Source: Candidatus Dojkabacteria bacterium (GTDB lineage Bacteria > Patescibacteriota > Dojkabacteria > SC72). From it: a DNA stretch of 64,000 nucleotides. The position numbers and the translations under genes were made by a program. The stretch spans positions 53,136-117,135 of the forward strand of contig JBMNHB010000001.1 in the NCBI GenBank assembly GCA_050950145.1, written 5' to 3'. Position 1 is the stretch's first letter; every line of letters begins with the position of its first letter. Below, in pieces: positions 17,028-62,504 of this stretch. The notes beneath the pieces were generated by a model, which was not told the DNA's origin, searched no databases, and was given only the letters and a program-made list of their open reading frames with translations.

Positions 17028-17042
17028 ATATATAGATTCTAA

Positions 17043-17060
17043 TTACATATTAATGTAGTT
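17043..17060 (+). promoter_or_regulatory. Candidate operator palindrome (TACAT-N4-ATGTA) in the divergent lexA-like/dinD intergenic region
   Basis: ttacatattaatgtag lies 16-33 nt upstream of the lexA-like start. Confidence 0.3.
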
Positions 17061-17332
17061 AGAATAGAAAAGAAGGTCATAGATATGAAATATAATTTCG
17101 TAATTGTAAGAATTTTGTAAGAAATGAAATAGATAATCTGTATATGGAAGCATTAAAAGAATTAGTAAAAGAAATAGATAGAATATATGGGAAAAAGAAG
17201 ATCAATAGAAGAGATTTAGAAAGATTGTTGAAGAAGTGTAGGAAGGTAAGAAAAACTTTATCCCGTTTTTAATCTGGATTTAATAATTTCTTGTTATATA
17301 TCTATATATCCTTAAATTTTTATCTAAAAATT

Positions 17333-18139
17333 ATGAAAGAAAATAACACAATCAAACTATTTCAAAACAAAAAGATACGAGTAGAGTGGAATAGTGAAAA
17401 AGAAGAATGGTTGTTCTCAATTGTAGATATCATAGGTGTTTTAACAGAGAGTCCAAATCCTAGAAATTACTGGAAAGTTTTGAAATTTAGGTTGCAAAAA
17501 GAGAATAGTCAGTTGGTTACAAATTGTAACCAACTGAAATTAAAATCATCTGACGGGAAATATTACAAAACAGATGTAGCGAATACAGAGCAGATTTTAA
17601 GAATCATACAATCAATACCTTCTCCAAAAGCAGAGCCTTTTAAATTATGGTTAGCACGGGTTGGTAAAGAACGAATAGATGAAACAATTGATCCAGAATT
17701 AACGATAGATAGAGCATTAAGAACTTATCAGAAAAAGGGATACAGTAAGGCATGGATAAATCAAAGATTACAATCTATTCAAGTAAGAAAAGAACTTACA
17801 GATGAATGGGAAGAAAGAGGTGTGAAGAGAGGTTTTGAGTTTGGAATCTTAACAGATGAGATAACTAAAGCTTGGTCTGACCTCACAACACGAAAATATA
17901 AAGAATTAAAAGGTTTAACAAAAGAAAACCTTAGAGACAATATGTCTACTATTGAAATAGTTCTGAATATGTTAGCAGAAGCATCAACAACAGAAATTTC
18001 CAAAGAAGTCCAACCAAAGAATTTTGATGAGAATAAAAAAGTAGCAAAGTTAGGAGGAAATGTTGCTGGAAATGCGAGAAAAGAAATAGAGAAGACAACA
18101 AAGAAGTCAATTATTACAAATAGAAAAACTCTTCAATAA
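17333..18139 (+). CDS. dinD: DNA-damage-inducible protein D homolog (Bro-N domain)
   Basis: N-terminal Bro-N-like segment (WLFSIVDIIGVL...NPRNYWK); C-terminal region collinear with E. coli DinD (..LKKNQKILDHMGSTELAANLF.. ~ ..LTKENLRDNMSTIEIVLNML..). Confidence 0.7.
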   Translation: MKENNTIKLFQNKKIRVEWNSEKEEWLFSIVDIIGVLTESPNPRNYWKVLKFRLQKENSQLVTNCNQLKLKSSDGKYYKTDVANTEQILRIIQSIPSPKAEPFKLWLARVGKERIDETIDPELTIDRALRTYQKKGYSKAWINQRLQSIQVRKELTDEWEERGVKRGFEFGILTDEITKAWSDLTTRKYKELKGLTKENLRDNMSTIEIVLNMLAEASTTEISKEVQPKNFDENKKVAKLGGNVAGNARKEIEKTTKKSIITNRKTLQ

Positions 18140-55056: not shown

Positions 55057-56481
55057 ATGCAAAAACAATATATTCAAATAGGGAATCAGAATGTTTTCAA
55101 TGGACAATATCTTCTTGCAGTTTTTAGGATAAAAGGAGAAGAAGGTATTACTGTTGAAGATATCGCTAGTGAAGTAGCTGCAGAGTCTTCTACTGGTTCA
55201 AATGTAAAAATCAAAATATCTACTCCTTTTTCTGAAAGTTTAAATGCGGTTGTATACAGAGTGGATGAAGAACAAAATCTTGCTTGGATTGCATATCCCT
55301 GGAGAATCTTTGATAGAGGTGGTAATGTTCAAAATATCATGACCTTTCTTGCTGGAAATGTATTTGGAATGAGTAGTGTAAAGGCTTGCAAACTACTAGA
55401 CGTATATTTCCCTCCTCAGATGCTTGTTCAATACGATGGTCCAAATTACACAATTGATGATATGAGAAAGTATCTTGGTGTTGAGAAAAGACCAATATTT
55501 GGAACAATCATTAAACCTAAAATAGGATTAACATCTTCAGAATACGCAGAAGTTTGCTATGACTTCTGGTCAGGTGGTGGTGATTTTGTAAAAAATGATG
55601 AACCTCAAGCAGATCAAGATTTTGCTCCTTTTGAATTCATGGTTAGAGATGTAAGGCTGGCAATGGACAGAGTAGAGCAAGAAACAGGAAAAACAAAAGT
55701 ACATTCCTTTAATATCTCTTCAGCTGATTTTGATACAATGATAAAGCGAGCTGACTTTGTCCAATCAGTAATGAAACCCGGTAGCTATGCATTTTTAGTA
55801 GATGGAATTACAGCAGGTTGGACAGCAGTACAAACAATTAGAAGACGATATCCTGATGTATTCTTACATTTCCATAGAGCTGGACATGGTGCATTTACAA
55901 GAGAAGAAGCACCATTTGGTTTTACAGTTCCTGTTTTAACAAAGTTTGCGAGATTGGCAGGAGCATCAGGCATTCATACAGGAACAGCTGGCGTAGGTAA
56001 AATGGCAGGATCTCCAAAAGAAGATATTATGGCTGCAAATCATGCCTTAAGACTCTTTTCAAAAGGTGATTTCTTTAATCAAATATGGTCAGAAATACCA
56101 GAAAAAGATACAGATTTGATAGATGCAATAAAGAAAGAACAAGAAGGACAAGACTATTCTGGTTTTGGATATTGGAGAATGGTTAAAAAGACTACTCCAA
56201 TTATCTCAGGAGGTCTAAACCCAACATTAATAGGAAAATTCTTAGATGTAGTTGGAACACTGGATTTCATTACAACAATGGGTGGTGGAGTACATTCTCA
56301 TCCAATGGGTACAAAAGCTGGGGCAACAGCAGTATTACAAGCATATGAGGCATGGGAGCAAAAAATTCCTTTAGAAGAATATGCCCAAGATAAAGAGGAA
56401 TTGAAATCTGCAATTGAATTCTATGGAAAGAAAAAAGTAGAGAGTACCTCTGAGGCGGATGAAGACAAACCCATTATATAA
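55057..56481 (+). CDS. Ribulose-1,5-bisphosphate carboxylase large subunit, form II/III-like
   Basis: GGGDFVKNDEPQ (carbamylated-Lys region), IIKPKIGL (catalytic Lys), 474 aa; no small subunit gene adjacent. Confidence 0.9.
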   Translation: MQKQYIQIGNQNVFNGQYLLAVFRIKGEEGITVEDIASEVAAESSTGSNVKIKISTPFSESLNAVVYRVDEEQNLAWIAYPWRIFDRGGNVQNIMTFLAGNVFGMSSVKACKLLDVYFPPQMLVQYDGPNYTIDDMRKYLGVEKRPIFGTIIKPKIGLTSSEYAEVCYDFWSGGGDFVKNDEPQADQDFAPFEFMVRDVRLAMDRVEQETGKTKVHSFNISSADFDTMIKRADFVQSVMKPGSYAFLVDGITAGWTAVQTIRRRYPDVFLHFHRAGHGAFTREEAPFGFTVPVLTKFARLAGASGIHTGTAGVGKMAGSPKEDIMAANHALRLFSKGDFFNQIWSEIPEKDTDLIDAIKKEQEGQDYSGFGYWRMVKKTTPIISGGLNPTLIGKFLDVVGTLDFITTMGGGVHSHPMGTKAGATAVLQAYEAWEQKIPLEEYAQDKEELKSAIEFYGKKKVESTSEADEDKPII

Positions 56482-56948: not shown

Positions 56949-59027
56949 ATGTTGTTTAACGAAATTAAACATGAATTTGAGATAGGTGGTAGAAAGTGTT
57001 CCTTTGAAACAGGAAAACTAGCATTAAAATCTCAGTCCTCTATTCTTGCAAGAATGGGAGATACAGCAATTACAGTTAATGTAAATACTAAACCATCAAC
57101 AGGAGAGCTCGATTACTTTCCTCTTTCAGTAGAATATATTGAAAAATTCTATGCATCTGGCAAGATAAGTGGATCTAGATTTGTAAAGAGAGAGAGATTT
57201 CCAAGTGATGATGCGATTCTTAAGGCAAGAATGATTGATAGGTCAATTAGACCAAGATTTCCTGAAGATTACAAGGATGAGGTAAGTGTAATTGTTACTG
57301 TCATGTCATATGATGGTGAGAATGATCCTGCACTCTTAGCAATTAATGCAACATCTGTAGCTTTAATGAATTCATTTGCTCCTTTTGAGGGACCAATTGG
57401 TGCAGTTAGATTAGGTTTGAATGGTGATGAAGTTATTCCACTGTATAAAGCGATAGATCTTACGTCAGAGGATGAAAAGATGAACTATGTTGTAGCTGGT
57501 GATGGAAAGACATTTACTATGATTGATGCAGGTACACATATTGTTTCGGAAGAGAAGATTTTAGAGGCTATGGAGAAATCTCTAGATATGATGAAGGAGT
57601 GGATTAAACCCCAAGAAGAGTTTATTAAAAAGTTAGAAGCAAAGGATAAGGCATATGAGTCAGCAGGATTAGCAGATGAGGTTGTAGCAGCGGTGGAAGA
57701 GATTTTAGGAGGTGATACAATTAGAAAAAATCTTGAGACAGGTGATGCAAAGATGCATGAGGCAAGTAGGGAAGAATTATTTACTAAATTAGAAGGGAAG
57801 TACTCTAAGGCAGCTATAAGTGAGGCATATGAGAAACTTCAGAAGAAGATGTTAAGAAAGATTGTTTTGGATGAAGACAAAAGGGTTGATGGTAGAGGAA
57901 TTACAGATATTAGAGAGATGGCAACTGAAGTTGATTTACTCCCTAGAGTTCATGGTTCTGCACTTTTCACTAGAGGTGTTACTCAGACATTAACAATTGC
58001 TACTTTAGGAAGTCTTAGGGATGTAAGACTTGTTGATGATATGGAGGGTGAGAGAGAACAGAGATATATGCATTTCTACAATGACTTACCATTTGCGTAT
58101 GGTGATGTTGATAGGGTTAAGTTAATGCCAAGCAGAAGGGCTATAGGTCATGGTATGTTAGCAGAGAAAGGTTTGTGGCCAGTAATTCCATCAGAGGAAG
58201 ATTTTCCATATACAATGTTAGTAATGAGTGAGATTCAAGGTGAGAATGGTTCTAGCTCTATGGCTTCAGCGTGTGGTTCTTCTATGGCTCTCATGGCTGC
58301 AGGAGTTCCAATTAAAGATATTGTTGGAGGTATTGCTTGTGGTTTAGTTACAGGTGAGGACGGAACATTCAAAGTACTTACAGATATGCAAGGAGTAGAG
58401 GACTTCTATGGTGATATGGATTTCAAGATTACAGGAACAGAGTCTGGTGTAACTGCTGTACAGATGGATACAAAAACAAAAGGTTTAGACATGGATGTTG
58501 TGAGACAGACATTTGCACAATCTAAAGAAGCTAGAAAGATTGTAATTGCAAAGATGAAGGAGGCAATTGCTGAGCCTAGGACAGAAATGTCTCAATATGC
58601 ACCTAGAGTTGTACAGATAAAGGTGCCTACGGATAAGATTGGTGAAATTATTGGACCAGGAGGAAAGAATATTAGAGAACTTTCTGAAAAGACAGGAGCA
58701 GAGATTGAGATAGATGAGGATGGTACAGTTAATATATATAGCTCATCTCAAGAATCAATAGATGAAGCATCTAAAGCAATTAGTGTTTACAACTTTGTTC
58801 CTAAGGTTGGAGAAATCTATGAAGGTAAGGTTGCTTCAATTATGCCATATGGAGCATTTGTTGATTTAACTCCAAGTATCTCAGGTCTTCTTCATGTTTC
58901 TGAAATGGCAGATGAATTTGTAAAAGACCCTAAGAAATTTGTTAATGAAGGGGAGATAATAAAGGTAAAGATTGTTGATATTGATAGAGCAGGGAAGATA
59001 AAGTTGAGTATTAAGGGGGTAAAGTAG
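56949..59027 (+). CDS. pnp: Polyribonucleotide nucleotidyltransferase (PNPase)
   Basis: Two RNase PH domains, KH and S1 domains; classic rpsO-pnp arrangement. Confidence 0.95.
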   Translation: MLFNEIKHEFEIGGRKCSFETGKLALKSQSSILARMGDTAITVNVNTKPSTGELDYFPLSVEYIEKFYASGKISGSRFVKRERFPSDDAILKARMIDRSIRPRFPEDYKDEVSVIVTVMSYDGENDPALLAINATSVALMNSFAPFEGPIGAVRLGLNGDEVIPLYKAIDLTSEDEKMNYVVAGDGKTFTMIDAGTHIVSEEKILEAMEKSLDMMKEWIKPQEEFIKKLEAKDKAYESAGLADEVVAAVEEILGGDTIRKNLETGDAKMHEASREELFTKLEGKYSKAAISEAYEKLQKKMLRKIVLDEDKRVDGRGITDIREMATEVDLLPRVHGSALFTRGVTQTLTIATLGSLRDVRLVDDMEGEREQRYMHFYNDLPFAYGDVDRVKLMPSRRAIGHGMLAEKGLWPVIPSEEDFPYTMLVMSEIQGENGSSSMASACGSSMALMAAGVPIKDIVGGIACGLVTGEDGTFKVLTDMQGVEDFYGDMDFKITGTESGVTAVQMDTKTKGLDMDVVRQTFAQSKEARKIVIAKMKEAIAEPRTEMSQYAPRVVQIKVPTDKIGEIIGPGGKNIRELSEKTGAEIEIDEDGTVNIYSSSQESIDEASKAISVYNFVPKVGEIYEGKVASIMPYGAFVDLTPSISGLLHVSEMADEFVKDPKKFVNEGEIIKVKIVDIDRAGKIKLSIKGVK

Positions 59028-59043
59028 AAATGATGTTTGGACT

Positions 59044-59239
59044 GGTGATAATTTGTCACCAGTTCACTCTTTTCTGAAGTGTCCGATTTTTGCGGACGGT
59101 TTGTGTTTTCAGTTGTCCGATTTTAACGGACAGCTGTTTTTTTGTTAGAAGAGTGATTAATAAGGCATAAAGTTGTCTTTTTAAGTTGGTGATAATTTGT
59201 CACCAACTGCATTGTGTGAACTGTACGATATTTTCGTAC
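59044..59239. repeat. Array of five 17-bp palindromes (5-bp arms, 7-nt centre) within two ~60-bp direct repeats
   Basis: GGTGAtaatttgTCACC at 59045 and 59188. GTCCGatttttgCGGAC at 59081, GTCCGattttaaCGGAC at 59115, GTACGatattttCGTAC at 59223. Unit (GGTGA palindrome, ~20 nt, GTxCG palindrome) repeated 143 bp apart. Confidence 0.5.
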
Positions 59240-59516
59240 GATTGATAGTGTAAGTTAATAAATATATGAAAAAAGACCTTAACTTTTTTAAAAGCTAGGT
59301 CTTCTTTCGATGGGCGAGATTACCTCTCGACCAATTAGTTATACACCAGTATACAACTAAAATGCAATACAAATTGTTCGGTTGTTGTAATAGGCTTTTG
59401 TAGATGTACGACAGGTGATGTGATTTTATAAATGTGTACAACAAGAAAAATATTGTTTGCATTAAGCTTGGCTTGTTTTCCTATAGTATTTCTGCTATAA
59501 TCTTACTGTCAAAAGA

Positions 59517-59729
59517 GTGGCTCTTTACAAAATAAAAGAAGGTAGTAATATAACTTCTAGTGATAGCTATAGTTTCCACCATACTTCTTGGCAAAACTCT
59601 GGGGAAGATGGTGACAAAGGGACTAGGACTAGTTCTGATTGGCAAAACTCTAACACTGGTGGTTGGACAAAAACTTCAGAACATAGTACAAACCAAAACT
59701 ATGGCAAAAAGAGCTCAAAGCGTCACTAA
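59517..59729 (+). CDS. Questionable small ORF (70 aa, hydrophilic, internal SWQNS/DWQNS repeat)
   Basis: ORF only; lies in the ORF-poor gap downstream of the palindrome array. Confidence 0.2.
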   Translation: MALYKIKEGSNITSSDSYSFHHTSWQNSGEDGDKGTRTSSDWQNSNTGGWTKTSEHSTNQNYGKKSSKRH

Positions 59730-59800
59730 CAACTAAAACAAGCTAATTAAGTACCAAAAAACAATGATTAACAATCCAAAGCTTCTCTTTTAGACAAAGA

Positions 59801-59841
59801 GAGAGAAATCTAATATCCTAATTGAGTGTTAGATTTCTCTC
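59801..59841 (+). repeat. Perfect 13-bp stem hairpin (gagagaaatctaa / ttagatttctctc) with 15-nt loop
   Basis: Seen directly; no T-run follows. Confidence 0.4.
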
Positions 59842-59921
59842 CATCTTTACTAATTATGTAGGGTGCAAGGGAAATAGGGTCCCTTTTAATGAGGTGCAAG
59901 TCCTCCACTCTAGACCGAGGT

Positions 59922-59967
59922 CCACCCTCTTGTCTGCCTTAAAAAAGCAGGGGAGGGTGCTTTTTTT
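59922..59967. terminator. Candidate bidirectional rho-independent terminator between convergent transcription units
   Basis: caccctc / gagggtg stem with A6 run upstream and T7 run downstream; just past the rsmB stop (60010). Confidence 0.55.
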
Positions 59968-60009
59968 ATACTGAAATTTTAATACAGATATGTCTTTGTT
60001 TATCTCTAA

Positions 60010-61041
60010 CTACTCCTTAGATATCTTTGCAATAAAGAAACCCATCATCATCTTGTTAGGAATAATTCTAATAGCATTCTTTACTTGGTTGTCATAAACA
60101 TTACCACTCCATTTTCTAATACCAGGTTTAATAAATTCTTCTAATTCTGGCATTGATTTAACAATCTCATCCTTAAGTTCAATCTTTTCCACTTTTGCAT
60201 TAGGAAATGTCTTCAAAAGATGAGTAACTACTCCTTCATTCTCCTCAGGTTCTAATGTACAAGTAGAGTAAACCATATAGCTACCATGCTTTAATGTCTT
60301 AAATGCAGAAACAATTAACTCCTTCTGAACAAACACACTCCTCTTCACTTTGTCCATACTCCAGAATCTTAGGGGTTTAGGGCCTTTGAAATATATCAAA
60401 CCCTCACCACTACATGGAGCATCTAAAAGAACCTTATCAAAATATACAGGATATTTCTGTCCAAATTCTTTACCATCACTAAGTGTAACCTTTGCTTTAG
60501 CACCGAATTGATCTACTACACTCTGAAGATCAGATATCCTACTCATATCAATATCATTTGCAATGATATTGGCATTGTTGCTGACCATATCTGCAATATG
60601 TGTAGTCTTACTACCAGGAGCAGCACACATATCTAATATTTTCTCATTTCTCTTCGGATTCAGTATCAATGTAGCTAAAATACTAGAAAGATTCTGAATG
60701 TAATACTTACCATCGTCATACAATTCTGTTTGAGAAACCTCTGCCTTATCCTTATTCATTACAAAATATGTGTTCTCTGACCAAGGAATCTCTTCTAGCT
60801 CATATCCTCTTCTTAGTAATTCCTTCTTTGTTTCTTCAACATTACCCATTAATGAATTCAATCTAATTGTTGTAATTGGTCGCTGTGAGAATATCCAAGG
60901 AATTCTTCCTTTAGGTACCATTAATATACTAGCCATTCTTGAAACAAAGATGTCGTCCTTTGTGTAGAATTTATCTCTAACAGGTCTTTTTGTAAAAGCT
61001 TCTCTTCTTTTTTTGTAGCTAGATCTCTTTTTCTTCTTCAT
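60010..61041 (-). CDS. rsmB: NOL1/NOP2/Sun-family rRNA m5C methyltransferase
   Basis: SAM motif LDMCAAPGSKT; catalytic LLDAPCSGEG; ...STCTLEPEENE. Confidence 0.8.
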   Translation of the reverse strand: MKKKKRSSYKKRREAFTKRPVRDKFYTKDDIFVSRMASILMVPKGRIPWIFSQRPITTIRLNSLMGNVEETKKELLRRGYELEEIPWSENTYFVMNKDKAEVSQTELYDDGKYYIQNLSSILATLILNPKRNEKILDMCAAPGSKTTHIADMVSNNANIIANDIDMSRISDLQSVVDQFGAKAKVTLSDGKEFGQKYPVYFDKVLLDAPCSGEGLIYFKGPKPLRFWSMDKVKRSVFVQKELIVSAFKTLKHGSYMVYSTCTLEPEENEGVVTHLLKTFPNAKVEKIELKDEIVKSMPELEEFIKPGIRKWSGNVYDNQVKNAIRIIPNKMMMGFFIAKISKE

Positions 61042-61800: not shown

Positions 61801-62214
61801 TTACTTGATTTGGGATATGTTTGTTACTATTTTAATCTTAGAAGGTATTGCCTTCTTTATCTTTTCAAAATCTTTTTTATCTCTTGTTAGGATGTAATCA
61901 CAATTGTTTTCTATGGCTGTTAGATATTGCAATGAATCCTCGTAATCAGGTGATATATGTTTTGTGGCATCTATAATAATTTTACTTGTTAGTGGTAGTA
62001 TATTCATTGTGGATATAATTTCTGAGAATCTTAAAAACTCTTCAGAATCCATCTTTATCTTGAAAACATATAGTACAACTGGAACGCTTAAAGCTGATAT
62101 ACAAATAATTGGAAAGTACTCAGCATCAATTAACTGTTCTACACCACTATCATATTGTGTCCTTTCTCCTACTAAATCCGCTAATATGTTTGTGTCTAAG
62201 AATATCTTTTTCAT
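61801..62214 (-). CDS. vapC: PIN-domain toxin VapC
   Basis: IFLDTNIL N-terminus, conserved acidic residues, ILTRDKKDF. Confidence 0.8.
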   Translation of the reverse strand: MKKIFLDTNILADLVGERTQYDSGVEQLIDAEYFPIICISALSVPVVLYVFKIKMDSEEFLRFSEIISTMNILPLTSKIIIDATKHISPDYEDSLQYLTAIENNCDYILTRDKKDFEKIKKAIPSKIKIVTNISQIK

Positions 62215-62504
62215 TTTCTATACTTTTCAATCATAATTTTCTTAAATTCTTCATTTGCATCAATATTCTTGTGTTTCTGTGTGGCAAGATGCCCTAGAGG
62301 GAGTTGCAAGGCTTTTCTCATCTGTTCTCTTCTAATTTCTTGTTTGCTCTCTATCTTGACCTCATATTGTTCTGGGATATAGTAGCCAATGGGAATACCT
62401 TTCTCATATATTCTCACCAATGAATCCTTTAACTGTGTTAGATTGTGTCTAAAATCTCTTAGATTGATTTTTGTATATTCTTTGTTCTTCATGTTTTCCT
62501 TCAT
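62211..62504 (-). CDS. Phd/YefM-type antitoxin candidate (VapB partner)
   Basis: 4-nt overlap with the vapC start; N-terminal TKINLRDFRHNLTQLKDSL...PIGYYIPEQYE resembles Phd/YefM fold. Confidence 0.5.
   Translation of the reverse strand: MKENMKNKEYTKINLRDFRHNLTQLKDSLVRIYEKGIPIGYYIPEQYEVKIESKQEIRREQMRKALQLPLGHLATQKHKNIDANEEFKKIMIEKYRK

Follow-up and report, generated by a model that had tools for sequence, protein, structure and literature searches.

What occupies the approximately 1 kb that follows pnp in this Candidatus Dojkabacteria genome, and how did it come to be there? We analysed the gap (positions 59028-60009) within the 64-kb stretch of DNA of which it is part, hereafter the window. 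The original prediction had described an ORF-poor gap with palindromes in duplicated units and had proposed a small-protein or toxin locus, a cluster of small RNA (sRNA) genes, or an iteron-like replication or partition region. Two convergent genes border the gap:

56949..59027, plus strand: pnp (polynucleotide phosphorylase), a 692-aa ORF; left border of the hot spot
60010..61041, minus strand: NOL1/NOP2/Sun-family RNA m5C methyltransferase gene (RsmB/RsmF-like); right border of the hot spot

A variable spacer between two core genes

The pnp product carries Pfam RNase_PH/KH/S1 (scan of an identical JGI contig), and pnp orthologues in Dojkabacteria MAGs are 62-96% identical. A look-up of the exact PNPase sequence of the window gave no entry. 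The product of the rsmB-like gene scores 226.6 bits against TIGR00446, above the cut-off of that model, and matches Pfam Methyltr_RsmF_N/RsmB-F. In many relatives, including the closest species-level ones without cargo, these two genes are separated by 3-60 bp (3 bp in L001 and 10-60 bp in many others), and a gap of approximately 1 kb is indeed exceptional, as had been claimed. In other relatives the spacer holds at least six mutually unrelated cargo sets, among them:

L005, L006: a Bro-N gene
L082, L083: a gene for a 337-aa protein plus a Bro-N gene
L081 (PNPase 96% identical): a radical-SAM/SPASM gene with 304-aa and 109-aa genes
L086: a 320-aa gene
L101: a gene for a 144-aa membrane protein

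A Bro-N gene is resident in the spacer of four relatives. The presence of unrelated cargo in some relatives and a near-zero spacer in others identifies the pnp/rsmB-like spacer as an accessory-gene hot spot. In our preferred reading, to which we give a probability of roughly 0.6, the gap after pnp is the decayed remains of such a strain-variable hot spot, lying between convergent core genes of a CPR genome. The original prediction had held that ordinary genes at this place in relatives, together with palindromes that are common repeats, would count against it; some relatives do have ordinary genes here and others have no spacer, but within the 64 kb the palindromes are confined to this locus and to one Bro-N gene.

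No integrase-like ORF was present among the spacer cargo proteins scanned, and ARAGORN found no tRNA or tmRNA, and thus no tRNA-type attachment site. A blastn comparison of the gap with phage genomes gave no matches, and a scan of IMG/VR for the combined A-N-B pattern was empty.

Palindromes of three types in the gap

The gap contains five free-standing palindromes and one half copy, at 59038-59240 and 59403-59411. The element is ~25-40 nt long and falls into three types, GGTGACA, GTCCG and GTACG. The class A palindrome, TGGTGATAATTTGTCACCA, occurs, as first reported, in two identical copies (59043-59061 and 59187-59205), with a spacing of 144 bp in place of the 143 bp originally given. The three class B palindromes, GT(C/A)CG-N7-CG(G/T)AC, were found as described (at 59081, 59115 and 59223); the rest of the 64 kb has none, and shuffles lead one to expect 0.00. 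The proposed duplication of ~60-bp units also holds, the units A1-B1 and A2-B3 being 77% identical across 60 nt. The free-standing copies, and the gene within the window to which they are related, are:

59038..59082, minus strand: A1, GGTGACA type with 5' flank GAAAAGAGTGAAC; free copy of the Bro-N palindrome
59080..59098, minus strand: B1, GTCCG type; free copy
59101..59143, minus strand: B2, GTCCG type; free copy
59174..59212, minus strand: A2, GGTGACA type
59215..59253, plus strand: B3, GTACG type; free copy
17291..18139, plus strand: Bro-N-domain paralogue of the same genome, an ORF that aligns with the spacer-resident Bro-N genes
17509-17537, within the Bro-N paralogue: intragenic palindrome TCAGTTGGTTACAAATTGTAACCAACTGA (50.9 bits with the covariance model, CM)

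A dyad within Bro-N genes

A dyad of ~27 nt is located at one fixed codon position of Bro-N-domain genes from at least five bacterial lineages, and a hairpin lies at those codons in each of the 32 distinct Bro-N genes sampled. Among the near-perfect hairpins of the 64 kb (loops of at most 9 nt), the window copy at 17509-17537 has the longest stem. Pairing across the dyad is found in 87.5% of cells, compared with 58% in shuffles and at most 37% in slid controls; double-sided changes occur in 11 of the 12 pairs; and the mean MFE at the dyad position is -14.4 kcal/mol against a gene-wide value of -4.5 (sd 2.0). The protein is otherwise conserved, and the peptide that the dyad encodes is its most variable part. 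In an independent test set, Bro-N genes of Arcobacter, Paracaedimonas, Haliscomenobacter, Chondrinema and Megaera gave dyad scores of 28-52 bits. An intragenic dyad is present in six of the eight plasmid Bro-N genes tested; the exceptions are two Chlorohelix genes, which carry a dyad not within the gene but immediately before its start codon. On some plasmids a Bro-N gene lies directly downstream of parA-parB.

The dyad occurs as discrete types that are common to distant genes, swapped between close ones and uncoupled from the gene tree. Between L082 and L202 the Bro-N proteins share 56% identity and the third codon positions of the genes 53%, yet the dyads are identical at 27 of 27 positions; between L082 and L083 the proteins share 92% identity, but only 20 of 27 dyad positions agree, the switch of type falling within a ~180-nt patch of clustered substitutions. 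The type sequences are kept at the nucleotide level across phyla. Mismatches within the dyad show no excess of G-U (4, against 3 A-C, in 260 cells), and both properties fit a sequence-specific target at the level of DNA. It is more probable that the dyad is recognised as DNA, by its sequence, with an operator for the Bro-N protein as one candidate, than that it acts as an RNA structure alone. Literature searches for a palindrome or hairpin within Bro-N, bro or antirepressor genes found nothing relevant, and we found no earlier description of the Bro-N-embedded palindrome in the literature searched.

The spacer-resident Bro-N protein of the relatives matches Pfam Bro-N at 31.3 bits (cut-off 25.6), with 95 residues aligned against 91 model positions. 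This match has no extra segment, which rules out an in-frame insertion of the kind formed by Rickettsia palindromic elements (RPEs). Assignment of the protein to DinD was rejected (NF008573, 32 bits against a cut-off of 242, C-terminal region only). We also discarded an internal translation start, for which the intragenic hairpin would bring an SD-like GAAGGA near to an ATG that follows it, because many members have Leu codons there.

Homology of the gap palindromes to the Bro-N dyad

The class A and class B palindromes of the gap are variants of the Bro-N dyad, homologous to the intragenic copies. The CM R1 search, for which the training set comprised intragenic copies only and a palindrome was a 10-13-bp dyad with a 1-5-nt centre and the outer consensus AAnTG...CAnTT, returned three matches at E < 0.1 in the 64 kb outside the training locus: A2 (25.9 bits, E = 0.0015, the best match, also found by nhmmer), B3 (21.4 bits, E = 0.019) and B2 (20.6 bits, E = 0.029). 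Across 446 kb of other loci it found free copies in the Dojkabacteria spacer only. A1 scored 15 bits (E ~0.6), its L083 orthologue 28.8 bits, and B1 fell below the reporting limit of E <= 10 because its outer stem is lost. A1 and B1 are assigned on their near-identical cores and flanks, not on CM significance. The A1 core agrees with the intragenic type at 23 of 27 positions, and A1 matches positions 172-205 of the Bro-N gene profile (nhmmer); the 17-nt core of B1 agrees at 16 of 17 positions with the intragenic palindrome of L082, L173 and L202. The 19-mer core of A2 (repeat family D2) is that of A1, and the 17-mer of B3 is identical to a free copy beside the rsmB-like gene in L082. The minus strand of B2 translates as QLSVKIGQLK, comparable to SELSEKIGQLK in Bro-N. 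In the free copies the central triplet is inverted relative to the intragenic ones (AAA vs TTT).

The full-gene Bro-N DNA profile matches the gap only at positions 172-215, and this 40-nt dyad segment is the only part of the gene that recurs there, the remainder being undetectable by nhmmer and tblastn. None of the gap copies occupies the fixed codon position of a Bro-N gene. All are free-standing, with no other Bro-N sequence around them, which marks them as derivatives and not as residents. A decayed full-length Bro-N pseudogene was considered as an account of the gap and rejected; tblastn with the Bro-N and 337-aa proteins recovers the palindrome segment only.

A1 has orthologues in L082 and L083, where its hairpin and flank have diverged less than the pnp 3' end. 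The two A cores do not differ from each other, and their flanks share 77% identity. The conservation of the A1 hairpin in three lineages and the identity of the A cores may hint at selection or gene conversion.

The palindromes could instead be live operators, at which a dimer of a Bro-N protein (for example the paralogue at 17.3-18.1 kb) controls the abutting promoters, so that the gap would be regulatory. This reading overlaps the preferred one and differs from it only on present-day function. The dyads do stand next to promoter-like hexamers: B3 is followed 2 nt on by TTGATA (-35-like), a decayed B copy in L082 and L083 by 1 nt and then the TTGACA of the 337-aa gene, and a free copy in L203 lies beside TTGACA. 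The Chlorohelix dyad upstream of the start codon and the signs of a DNA-level target given above agree with this, and Bro-N is reportedly a DNA-binding domain. Yet the promoter-like site at A2-B3 has no gene left downstream in the window, because segment S (described below) comes next; the B copy upstream of the L082/L083 promoter is missing one arm; and three dyad types stand side by side in the gap, whereas the single Bro-N paralogue of the window has a fourth (GGTTACA). We consider present-day operator function unlikely.

The suggestion that the repeats are iterons, or centromere-like replication or partition sites, fared worse. The dyads are clustered, and the plasmid arrangement downstream of parA-parB would suit such a role, but the repeats are dyads of three types instead of direct repeats in tandem, the window has no rep or par gene nearby (neither flanking gene is one), and the whole region is missing from close relatives. 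The GC-skew curve, proposed as a check, has no sustained reversal at the locus; its one dip, at 60-62 kb, coincides with minus-strand genes. The probability of this reading is close to negligible.

Segment S and a breakpoint at a palindrome centre

Two parts of the window match L082, 58901-59092 and 59256-59411. The second, segment S, ends at the half palindrome:

59256..59411, minus strand: segment S, the rsmB-like 3' UTR with its predicted terminator, now severed from the gene
59403..59411: half palindrome GATGTACGA, the breakpoint, where L082 has the full GATGTACGATATTTTCGTACATC

Segment S is 92% identical to L082 4312-4464. The L082 counterpart reaches a palindrome 10 nt from the stop codon of the rsmB-like gene, and we read segment S as the 3' UTR of that gene because in L082 it runs up to this stop region. 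It contains a predicted terminator with A-tract, hairpin and U-tract (59268-59308) and has a fold z of -4.45. The alignment with L082 diverges exactly at the dyad centre, GATGTACGA|TATTTTCGTACATC, and the same dyad is found on both sides of segment S in the window. This alignment shows that an insertion of ~580 bp parted segment S from the rsmB-like gene exactly at the centre of the palindrome.

Such a junction is what one would see if the dyads were recombination sites of a cassette system, or silent donors that switch the palindrome type of Bro-N genes by gene conversion. The half copy left at the break, the dyad flanking segment S on both sides, the recurrence in the gap of the 40-nt dyad segment alone, the switch of type within a ~180-nt patch between 92%-identical genes and the inverted central triplet of the free copies all point this way. 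Against it, there is no recombinase, integrase or HUH gene in any spacer version examined, the dyads are far shorter than attC sites, the cargo borders in L081, L086 and L101 have no dyads, and illegitimate recombination stimulated by palindromes gives the same picture with no dedicated system needed. We regard dedicated recombination or donor sites as very unlikely.

An inserted cassette with a small gene

The DNA beyond the breakpoint forms a cassette:

59412..59990, plus strand: inserted cassette of ~580 bp (promoter, 70-aa ORF, terminator)
59473..59501, plus strand: predicted promoter TTGTTT-N17-(TGc)TATAAT with extended -10, read from the sequence
59517..59729, plus strand: 70-aa ORF of a rare hydrophilic small-protein family, with homologues P0003 (L163), P0004 (L200) and P0005
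59801-59813/59829-59841: perfect 13-bp hairpin with a 15-nt loop, between the 70-aa ORF and the final terminator
59923..59967, plus strand: predicted intrinsic terminator (hairpin 59923-59959, T7 59961-59967)

The cassette is absent at this site from all relatives, has no match in 160 related loci and was found only in contigs of the same organism. Its right junction was compared with L081, L082 and L083, and the boundary near 59990 was read by eye.

The 22-aa and 70-aa ORFs exist as listed. Although the gap was called ORF-poor, the 70-aa frame is a real coding sequence. It has 81% amino-acid identity to P0003, and differences from the homologue are distributed 4/6/17 over the codon positions, with a dN/dS of 0.10, indicating purifying selection. 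The family profile matches P0004 at E = 4.7e-6; the family has no match in Pfam. The TGnTATAAT and the leader that follows it are also present in L163. The SD sequence (AGAGG) and ATG have been removed by a 26-bp deletion between 59533 and 59534 (the direction of this indel is inferred from one outgroup), and the remaining start is GTG only, with no usable SD; L163 and L200 have both SD and ATG. The small-protein locus that had been proposed is thus half borne out, as an extremely rare but real family with its own predicted promoter and terminator, but one that has lost its SD and ATG here. By codon-usage log-odds no small ORF of the gap reaches the range of true genes, the 70-aa ORF scoring a weak 0.09; the codon-usage score alone would wrongly dismiss it.

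Hairpins, terminators and small RNAs

On the plus strand A1 is the first hairpin past the pnp stop codon, and B2 forms a 10-bp stem (59110-59136) followed by T7, by its anatomy a predicted canonical intrinsic terminator for pnp. B2 and the hairpin at 59923-59959 with its T7 fully fit the pattern of an intrinsic terminator, a G+C-rich stem-loop plus a U tract; the T tracts of A1 and B1 are weaker than that of B2. Fold z is -6.3 for 59028-59150 and -4.4 for 59170-59260. The perfect 13-bp hairpin was confirmed, and a long hairpin also lies 3' of the homologous small gene in L200. The supposed bidirectional terminator is a strong hairpin with a T run on the plus side only, and is thus unidirectional by sequence. 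A GC-rich patch at 59855-59920 was tried as a tRNA-like remnant and rejected (no Rfam or ARAGORN support, fold z -0.57).

The many stable hairpins, the terminator-like sites on both strands and, at 59512 on the minus strand, a promoter-like site with the consensus TTGACA that faces segment S could suggest that the gap encodes small RNAs, a type I toxin-antitoxin system (the 22-aa or 55-aa hydrophobic ORF plus an antisense RNA), or both. But Rfam 15 gave no match at the gathering score in the whole 64-kb window, and E-value scans of 58900-60150 and 17440-17610 returned only chance-level matches. The 22-aa ORF (59432-59500) has no SD and a negative codon score, overlaps the predicted promoter of the 70-aa ORF and has no conserved counterpart in L163, the homologous locus; the 55-aa ORF, on the minus strand, likewise has a negative codon score and no SD, and the L082 segment of 92% identity does not contain it. 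Segment S, which the promoter-like site faces, is read from L082 as the 3' UTR of the rsmB-like gene. Neither the toxin locus nor the sRNA cluster of the original prediction stood up, and we judge this reading highly improbable.

Origin and meaning of the free palindromes

Under our preferred reading, a decayed hot spot, the free palindromes would be remnants or copies from successive rounds in which cargo with Bro-N was gained, exchanged and lost, and rearrangements would tend to end at dyads. Today they would probably act mainly in the RNA, as hairpins at the pnp 3' end. A further-reaching proposal is that the Bro-N dyad is a new, sequence-specifically recognised DNA element in interchangeable types, its free copies being auxiliary operators or silent donor cassettes and the spacer recombination-prone; the gap would then be a reservoir of three dyad types left after the resident Bro-N gene was lost. 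We offer this as speculation that is decidedly unlikely to hold in full.

An "empty" kilobase becomes interpretable on this view as a very small hot spot for accessory genes within a reduced CPR genome. Its past can be dated by an insertion, a duplication, a break at a palindrome and the loss of a start codon. The analysis also brings to light a conserved nucleic-acid element that lies within the coding sequence of Bro-N, a widespread and functionally obscure family of phages, plasmids and chromosomes. The covariation of this dyad is as strong as in curated RNA families and, with the conservation of its types and their uncoupling from the tree, suggests a specific molecular partner and offers a handle on Bro-N recognition. 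A warning follows for annotation: short intergenic palindromes can be fragments of a coding-sequence element and need not be sRNAs or operators in their own right.

Comparison with known systems

As intrinsic terminators, B2, 59923-59967 and 59268-59308 have canonical anatomy at places where convergent transcripts must end. Ordinary terminators, however, are not homologous to a coding dyad of an unrelated gene family and do not form three conserved sequence types, and terminators are not needed at this spacer, since relatives manage with 3 bp. The gap palindromes resemble REP/BIME elements in being short, imperfect, clustered, in both orientations and at gene 3' ends; they differ in showing no dispersal across the 64 kb, where they occur at this locus and inside one gene only (the rest of the genome may hold further free copies), in having no RAYT-like transposase in view and in that the 'home' copy of the dyad is in coding sequence. 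Integron attC arrays do not fit in size and arrangement: the dyads are 17-29 nt and in both orientations, whereas attC sites are 57-141 bp with R/L boxes, their cassettes are co-oriented, and an IntI integrase and attI lie nearby.

RPEs are said to be selfish palindromes found in-frame inside protein genes. The Bro-N dyad is likewise palindromic DNA translated within a protein, but it is ~27 nt long, compared with 100-150 bp for RPEs, and it is not a presence/absence insertion. Dyad-symmetric binding sites inside coding sequence include parS within spo0J and auxiliary operators such as lacO2. In the Bro-N dyad several types coexist and are swapped among close homologues, and the binding partner is putative, unlike those sites; it shares with them a near-perfect Watson-Crick dyad symmetry, conservation at the nucleotide level exceeding that of synonymous sites and, in some lineages, a position immediately before the gene instead of within it.

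Chromosomal hot spots, or flexible genomic islets, are reported to lie between conserved core genes, and here too one core-gene pair flanks differing accessory cargo across strains. The pnp/rsmB-like spot differs in having no integrase or tRNA, in its very small size (0-2.3 kb) within a reduced CPR genome, and in a recurring Bro-N occupant that carries the dyad.

The pnp/methyltransferase spacer is a small accessory-gene hot spot

PNPase-anchored searches placed the window in Candidatus Dojkabacteria (CPR). In all relatives, pnp and the gene for a NOL1/NOP2/Sun-type RNA m5C methyltransferase (TIGR00446, 226.6 bits; rsmB-like) are convergent neighbors, and the spacer between them is highly variable.

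Spacers between pnp and the methyltransferase gene in relatives (L numbers denote loci from other contigs)
L001 (PNPase 86% identical): 3 bp
L003, L004, L007, L009-L011 and others: 10-60 bp
L002, L012: 150-300 bp, non-coding
L005, L006: one Bro-N-domain gene
L082, L083: 337-aa gene and Bro-N gene
L081 (PNPase 96% identical): radical-SAM/SPASM gene, 304-aa gene, 109-aa membrane protein
L086: 320-aa gene
L101: 144-aa membrane protein

Since the same gene pair encloses very different spacers, the locus is a small hot spot for accessory genes. Only contigs of this organism (L161, L162 and L165) were found to share the 980-bp state of the window spacer (the gap, 59028-60009), and the gap is a decayed mosaic of this hot spot.

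The cargo of the closest relative (L081, 6196-8467) resembles a peptide-modification-type mini-cluster. In the window, a RuBisCO large-subunit homologue (55057-56481; Pfam RuBisCO_large_N and RuBisCO_large), expected in CPR bacteria, lies directly upstream of rpsO-pnp. A VapBC-like toxin-antitoxin pair (61801-62504), a PIN-domain protein (137 aa) after a 97-aa ORF, lies two genes past the rsmB-like gene.

Palindromes of the gap

The repeats, small ORFs (22 and 70 aa) and hairpins of the original prediction are present in the gap; its bidirectional terminator stands as a strong hairpin, but the T run is on the plus side only.

Palindromes and hairpins of the gap
59043 and 59187: 19-mer TGGTGATAATTTGTCACCA, two copies spaced by 144 bp
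59081, 59115 and 59223: GT(C/A)CG-N7-CG(G/T)AC, absent elsewhere in the 64 kb
59801-59841: perfect 13-bp hairpin
59923-59959: strong hairpin plus T7

Shuffled sequences gave 0.00-0.04 palindrome matches expected by chance. We refer to the free-standing palindromes as A1 and A2 (GGTGACA type), B1 and B2 (GTCCG type) and B3 (GTACG type). The duplicated ~60-nt A+B units are 77% identical to each other, and the RNA fold of 59028-59150 has z = -6.3.

A conserved dyad inside Bro-N genes

A pattern search of all collected loci located the B motif in Dojkabacteria spacers alone; in L082, L083 and L006 it unexpectedly fell within the Bro-N gene. The sole other A-like match in the window (17514) lies at homologous codons of its own Bro-N paralogue (17291-18139), in a palindrome (17509-17537) whose 14-bp stem makes it the longest-stemmed near-perfect hairpin (loop ≤9 nt) in the 64 kb. 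This palindrome led to the finding of a ~27-nt dyad at one fixed codon position of Bro-N-domain genes.

With 34 further Bro-N homologues collected from IMG/VR, a hairpin was found at the dyad position in all 32 distinct genes (52-100% identical), formed by many different stems. In a gap-free 39-column alignment (n = 20 distinct), 87.5% of cells were paired, versus 58% after shuffling and ≤37% with slid partners, and 11 of the 12 dyad pairs had changes on both sides. Local folding energy at the dyad position lies ~5 sd from the gene-wide mean. The peptide it encodes (SELSEKIGQL, SEVYDKIVQL, SQLVTNCNQL) is the most variable stretch in an otherwise 79%-identical protein.

A second, weaker folding minimum lies at codon columns ~109-110, ~45 codons 3' of the dyad (mean -9.4 versus -4.5 kcal/mol gene-wide; 32 genes); it may reflect base composition or a further conserved structure.

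The gap palindromes are homologous to the dyad

A covariance model (R1) trained on intragenic copies only was run on the window without filters. Outside the training locus, the only hits with E < 0.1 were three gap palindromes.

R1 scores of gap palindromes
A2: 25.9 bits, E = 0.0015
B3: 21.4 bits, E = 0.019
B2: 20.6 bits, E = 0.029
A1: 15 bits

Its hits in 446 kb of other loci were all intragenic except the A1 orthologue of L083 (28.8 bits) and, in L082, the rsmB-proximal copy. Only positions 172-215 of a whole-gene DNA profile, covering the dyad and short flanks, matched the gap; neither this profile nor tblastn found the rest of the Bro-N gene in the gap. Random decay of a Bro-N gene would not leave just the dyad segment. 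All three gap types match intragenic types elsewhere, and these sequence comparisons indicate that the gap palindromes are homologous to the Bro-N dyad.

An intergenic palindrome with a 12-bp stem (ATTCTAATTACATATTAATGTAGTTAGAAT, 17036-17065), ~230-260 nt upstream of the Bro-N paralogue ORF (17291), is not matched by R1.

The dyad is probably a DNA-level target

Genes from annotated plasmids served as an independent test set for R1, in which the Chondrinema genes encode BRO proteins with a different C-terminus. R1 hit the Bro-N genes of Arcobacter, Paracaedimonas, Haliscomenobacter, Chondrinema and Megaera at the expected codons, with 28-52 bits. An extra Haliscomenobacter copy abuts TTGACA (L203, 1047-1079). 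Two Chlorohelix Bro-N genes have no intragenic dyad; a related, perfect palindrome sits directly 5' of their start codons.

Chlorohelix upstream palindromes
L204: 1430-1454
L205: 1452-1491

The Bro-N genes of these two plasmids lie downstream of parA-parB, and that of a Chondrinema plasmid (L207) downstream of a ParA gene and a hypothetical gene. On Arcobacter cloacae pACLO (L201), a Bro-N gene of the dyad subfamily is flanked by cas4 and cas1b in a type I-B CRISPR locus.

Non-Watson-Crick cells are rare and show no G-U excess (4 G-U versus 3 A-C among 260). Genes whose proteins are 52-63% identical and whose third positions are close to saturation (38-53%) agree at 23-27 of the 27 dyad nucleotides; L082 and L202 are identical at all 27. 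L082 and L083, 92% identical in protein, share only 20 of 27, and the differences fall inside a ~180-nt patch of clustered substitutions. The mismatch types, the discrete dyad types and their switching thus favor a sequence-specifically recognized DNA-level target, its type exchanged by recombination, over an RNA role as a generic hairpin.

The free GTACG copies (window 59223-59239; L082 4459-4475) and the intragenic copy of L083 (8874-8890) differ mainly in an inverted central triplet, TTT versus AAA, as would be expected if intrastrand template switching had inverted the loop.

The gap is a mosaic with a breakpoint at a dyad center

Segments of the mosaic
58901-59092: pnp 3' end, A1 and B1 left arm; 96% identical to L082, 91% to L083
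59256-59411, minus strand: segment S; 92% identical to L082 4312-4464
59412-~59990, plus strand: inserted cassette

Segment S, which contains an A-tract/hairpin/U-tract terminator (59268-59308), reads as the 3' UTR of the methyltransferase gene: its L082 equivalent leads directly into a palindrome (GATGTACGATATTTTCGTACATC) that is 10 nt away from the stop codon of this gene. The window sequence ceases to match L082 at ...GATGTACGA (59403-59411), the exact center of the dyad. Beyond this breakpoint lie ~580 bp of unrelated DNA before the methyltransferase stop region resumes near 59990, a junction placed by junction comparison and reading the sequences by eye. B3, at 59223 on the opposite side of segment S, contains the same 17-mer (GTACGATATTTTCGTAC) in full.

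The cassette carries a small gene that lost its start

Public assemblies contain an exact copy of the 70-aa frame, and L163 has a homologue (P0003) of 81% identity whose genomic context is unrelated. Differences from P0003 fall 4/6/17 by codon position (dN/dS 0.10), and stops abound in the other two frames, which points to a gene that is real now or was until very recently. When 1.84 billion representatives were searched exhaustively with a profile, just two more relatives emerged, a 71-aa protein (P0004) in a CPR-like small-gene island (L200) and a 38-aa fragment; the family is extremely rare and has no match in Pfam. In L163 and L200 the gene begins with a good SD+ATG start. Both elements were taken from the window copy by a 26-bp deletion between 59533 and 59534, leaving a GTG within the conserved leader, so that a real small gene appears to have lost its start. 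A predicted extended -10 promoter (TGcTATAAT, 59493-59501; TTGTTT 17 nt upstream) is shared with L163.

The L200 island (978-2477) encodes proteins of 71, 32, 70, 41 and 64 aa; the C-terminal half of the 70-aa protein resembles P0004 by eye, and the 64-aa protein is Cys/Asp-rich. The P0003 gene has as divergent neighbor a second 70-aa hydrophilic ORF (L163, 952-1164, minus strand) with a strong SD, no Pfam match and no window counterpart.

The original suggestion of a regulated small-protein or toxin locus is right only in part, in that a small-protein gene exists; no evidence of a toxin was found. The hydrophobic 22-aa ORF, which overlaps the promoter of the 70-aa gene, is not conserved and has a negative codon score, and a 55-aa ORF on the minus strand is absent from L082. 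Nor did the gap yield evidence for the suggested sRNA cluster or iterons.

Origin and role of the free copies

The free copies probably arose or stayed behind during turnover of Bro-N-containing cargo at the spacer, with rearrangements ending preferentially at dyads. Three lineages conserve the A1 hairpin with its flank, and the A1 and A2 cores are identical despite diverged flanks, as would suit operators still bound by a Bro-N protein, which we consider unlikely, or recombination or donor sites of a cassette system, which seems more doubtful still. At present, the gap copies probably act above all as hairpins and terminators at the pnp 3' end; B2, a 10-bp stem followed by U7, is predicted to be a textbook intrinsic terminator for this gene. 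No description of the Bro-N dyad was found in Rfam or the searchable literature, and the interest of the gap lies in its tie to this conserved, type-switching palindrome embedded in Bro-N genes.
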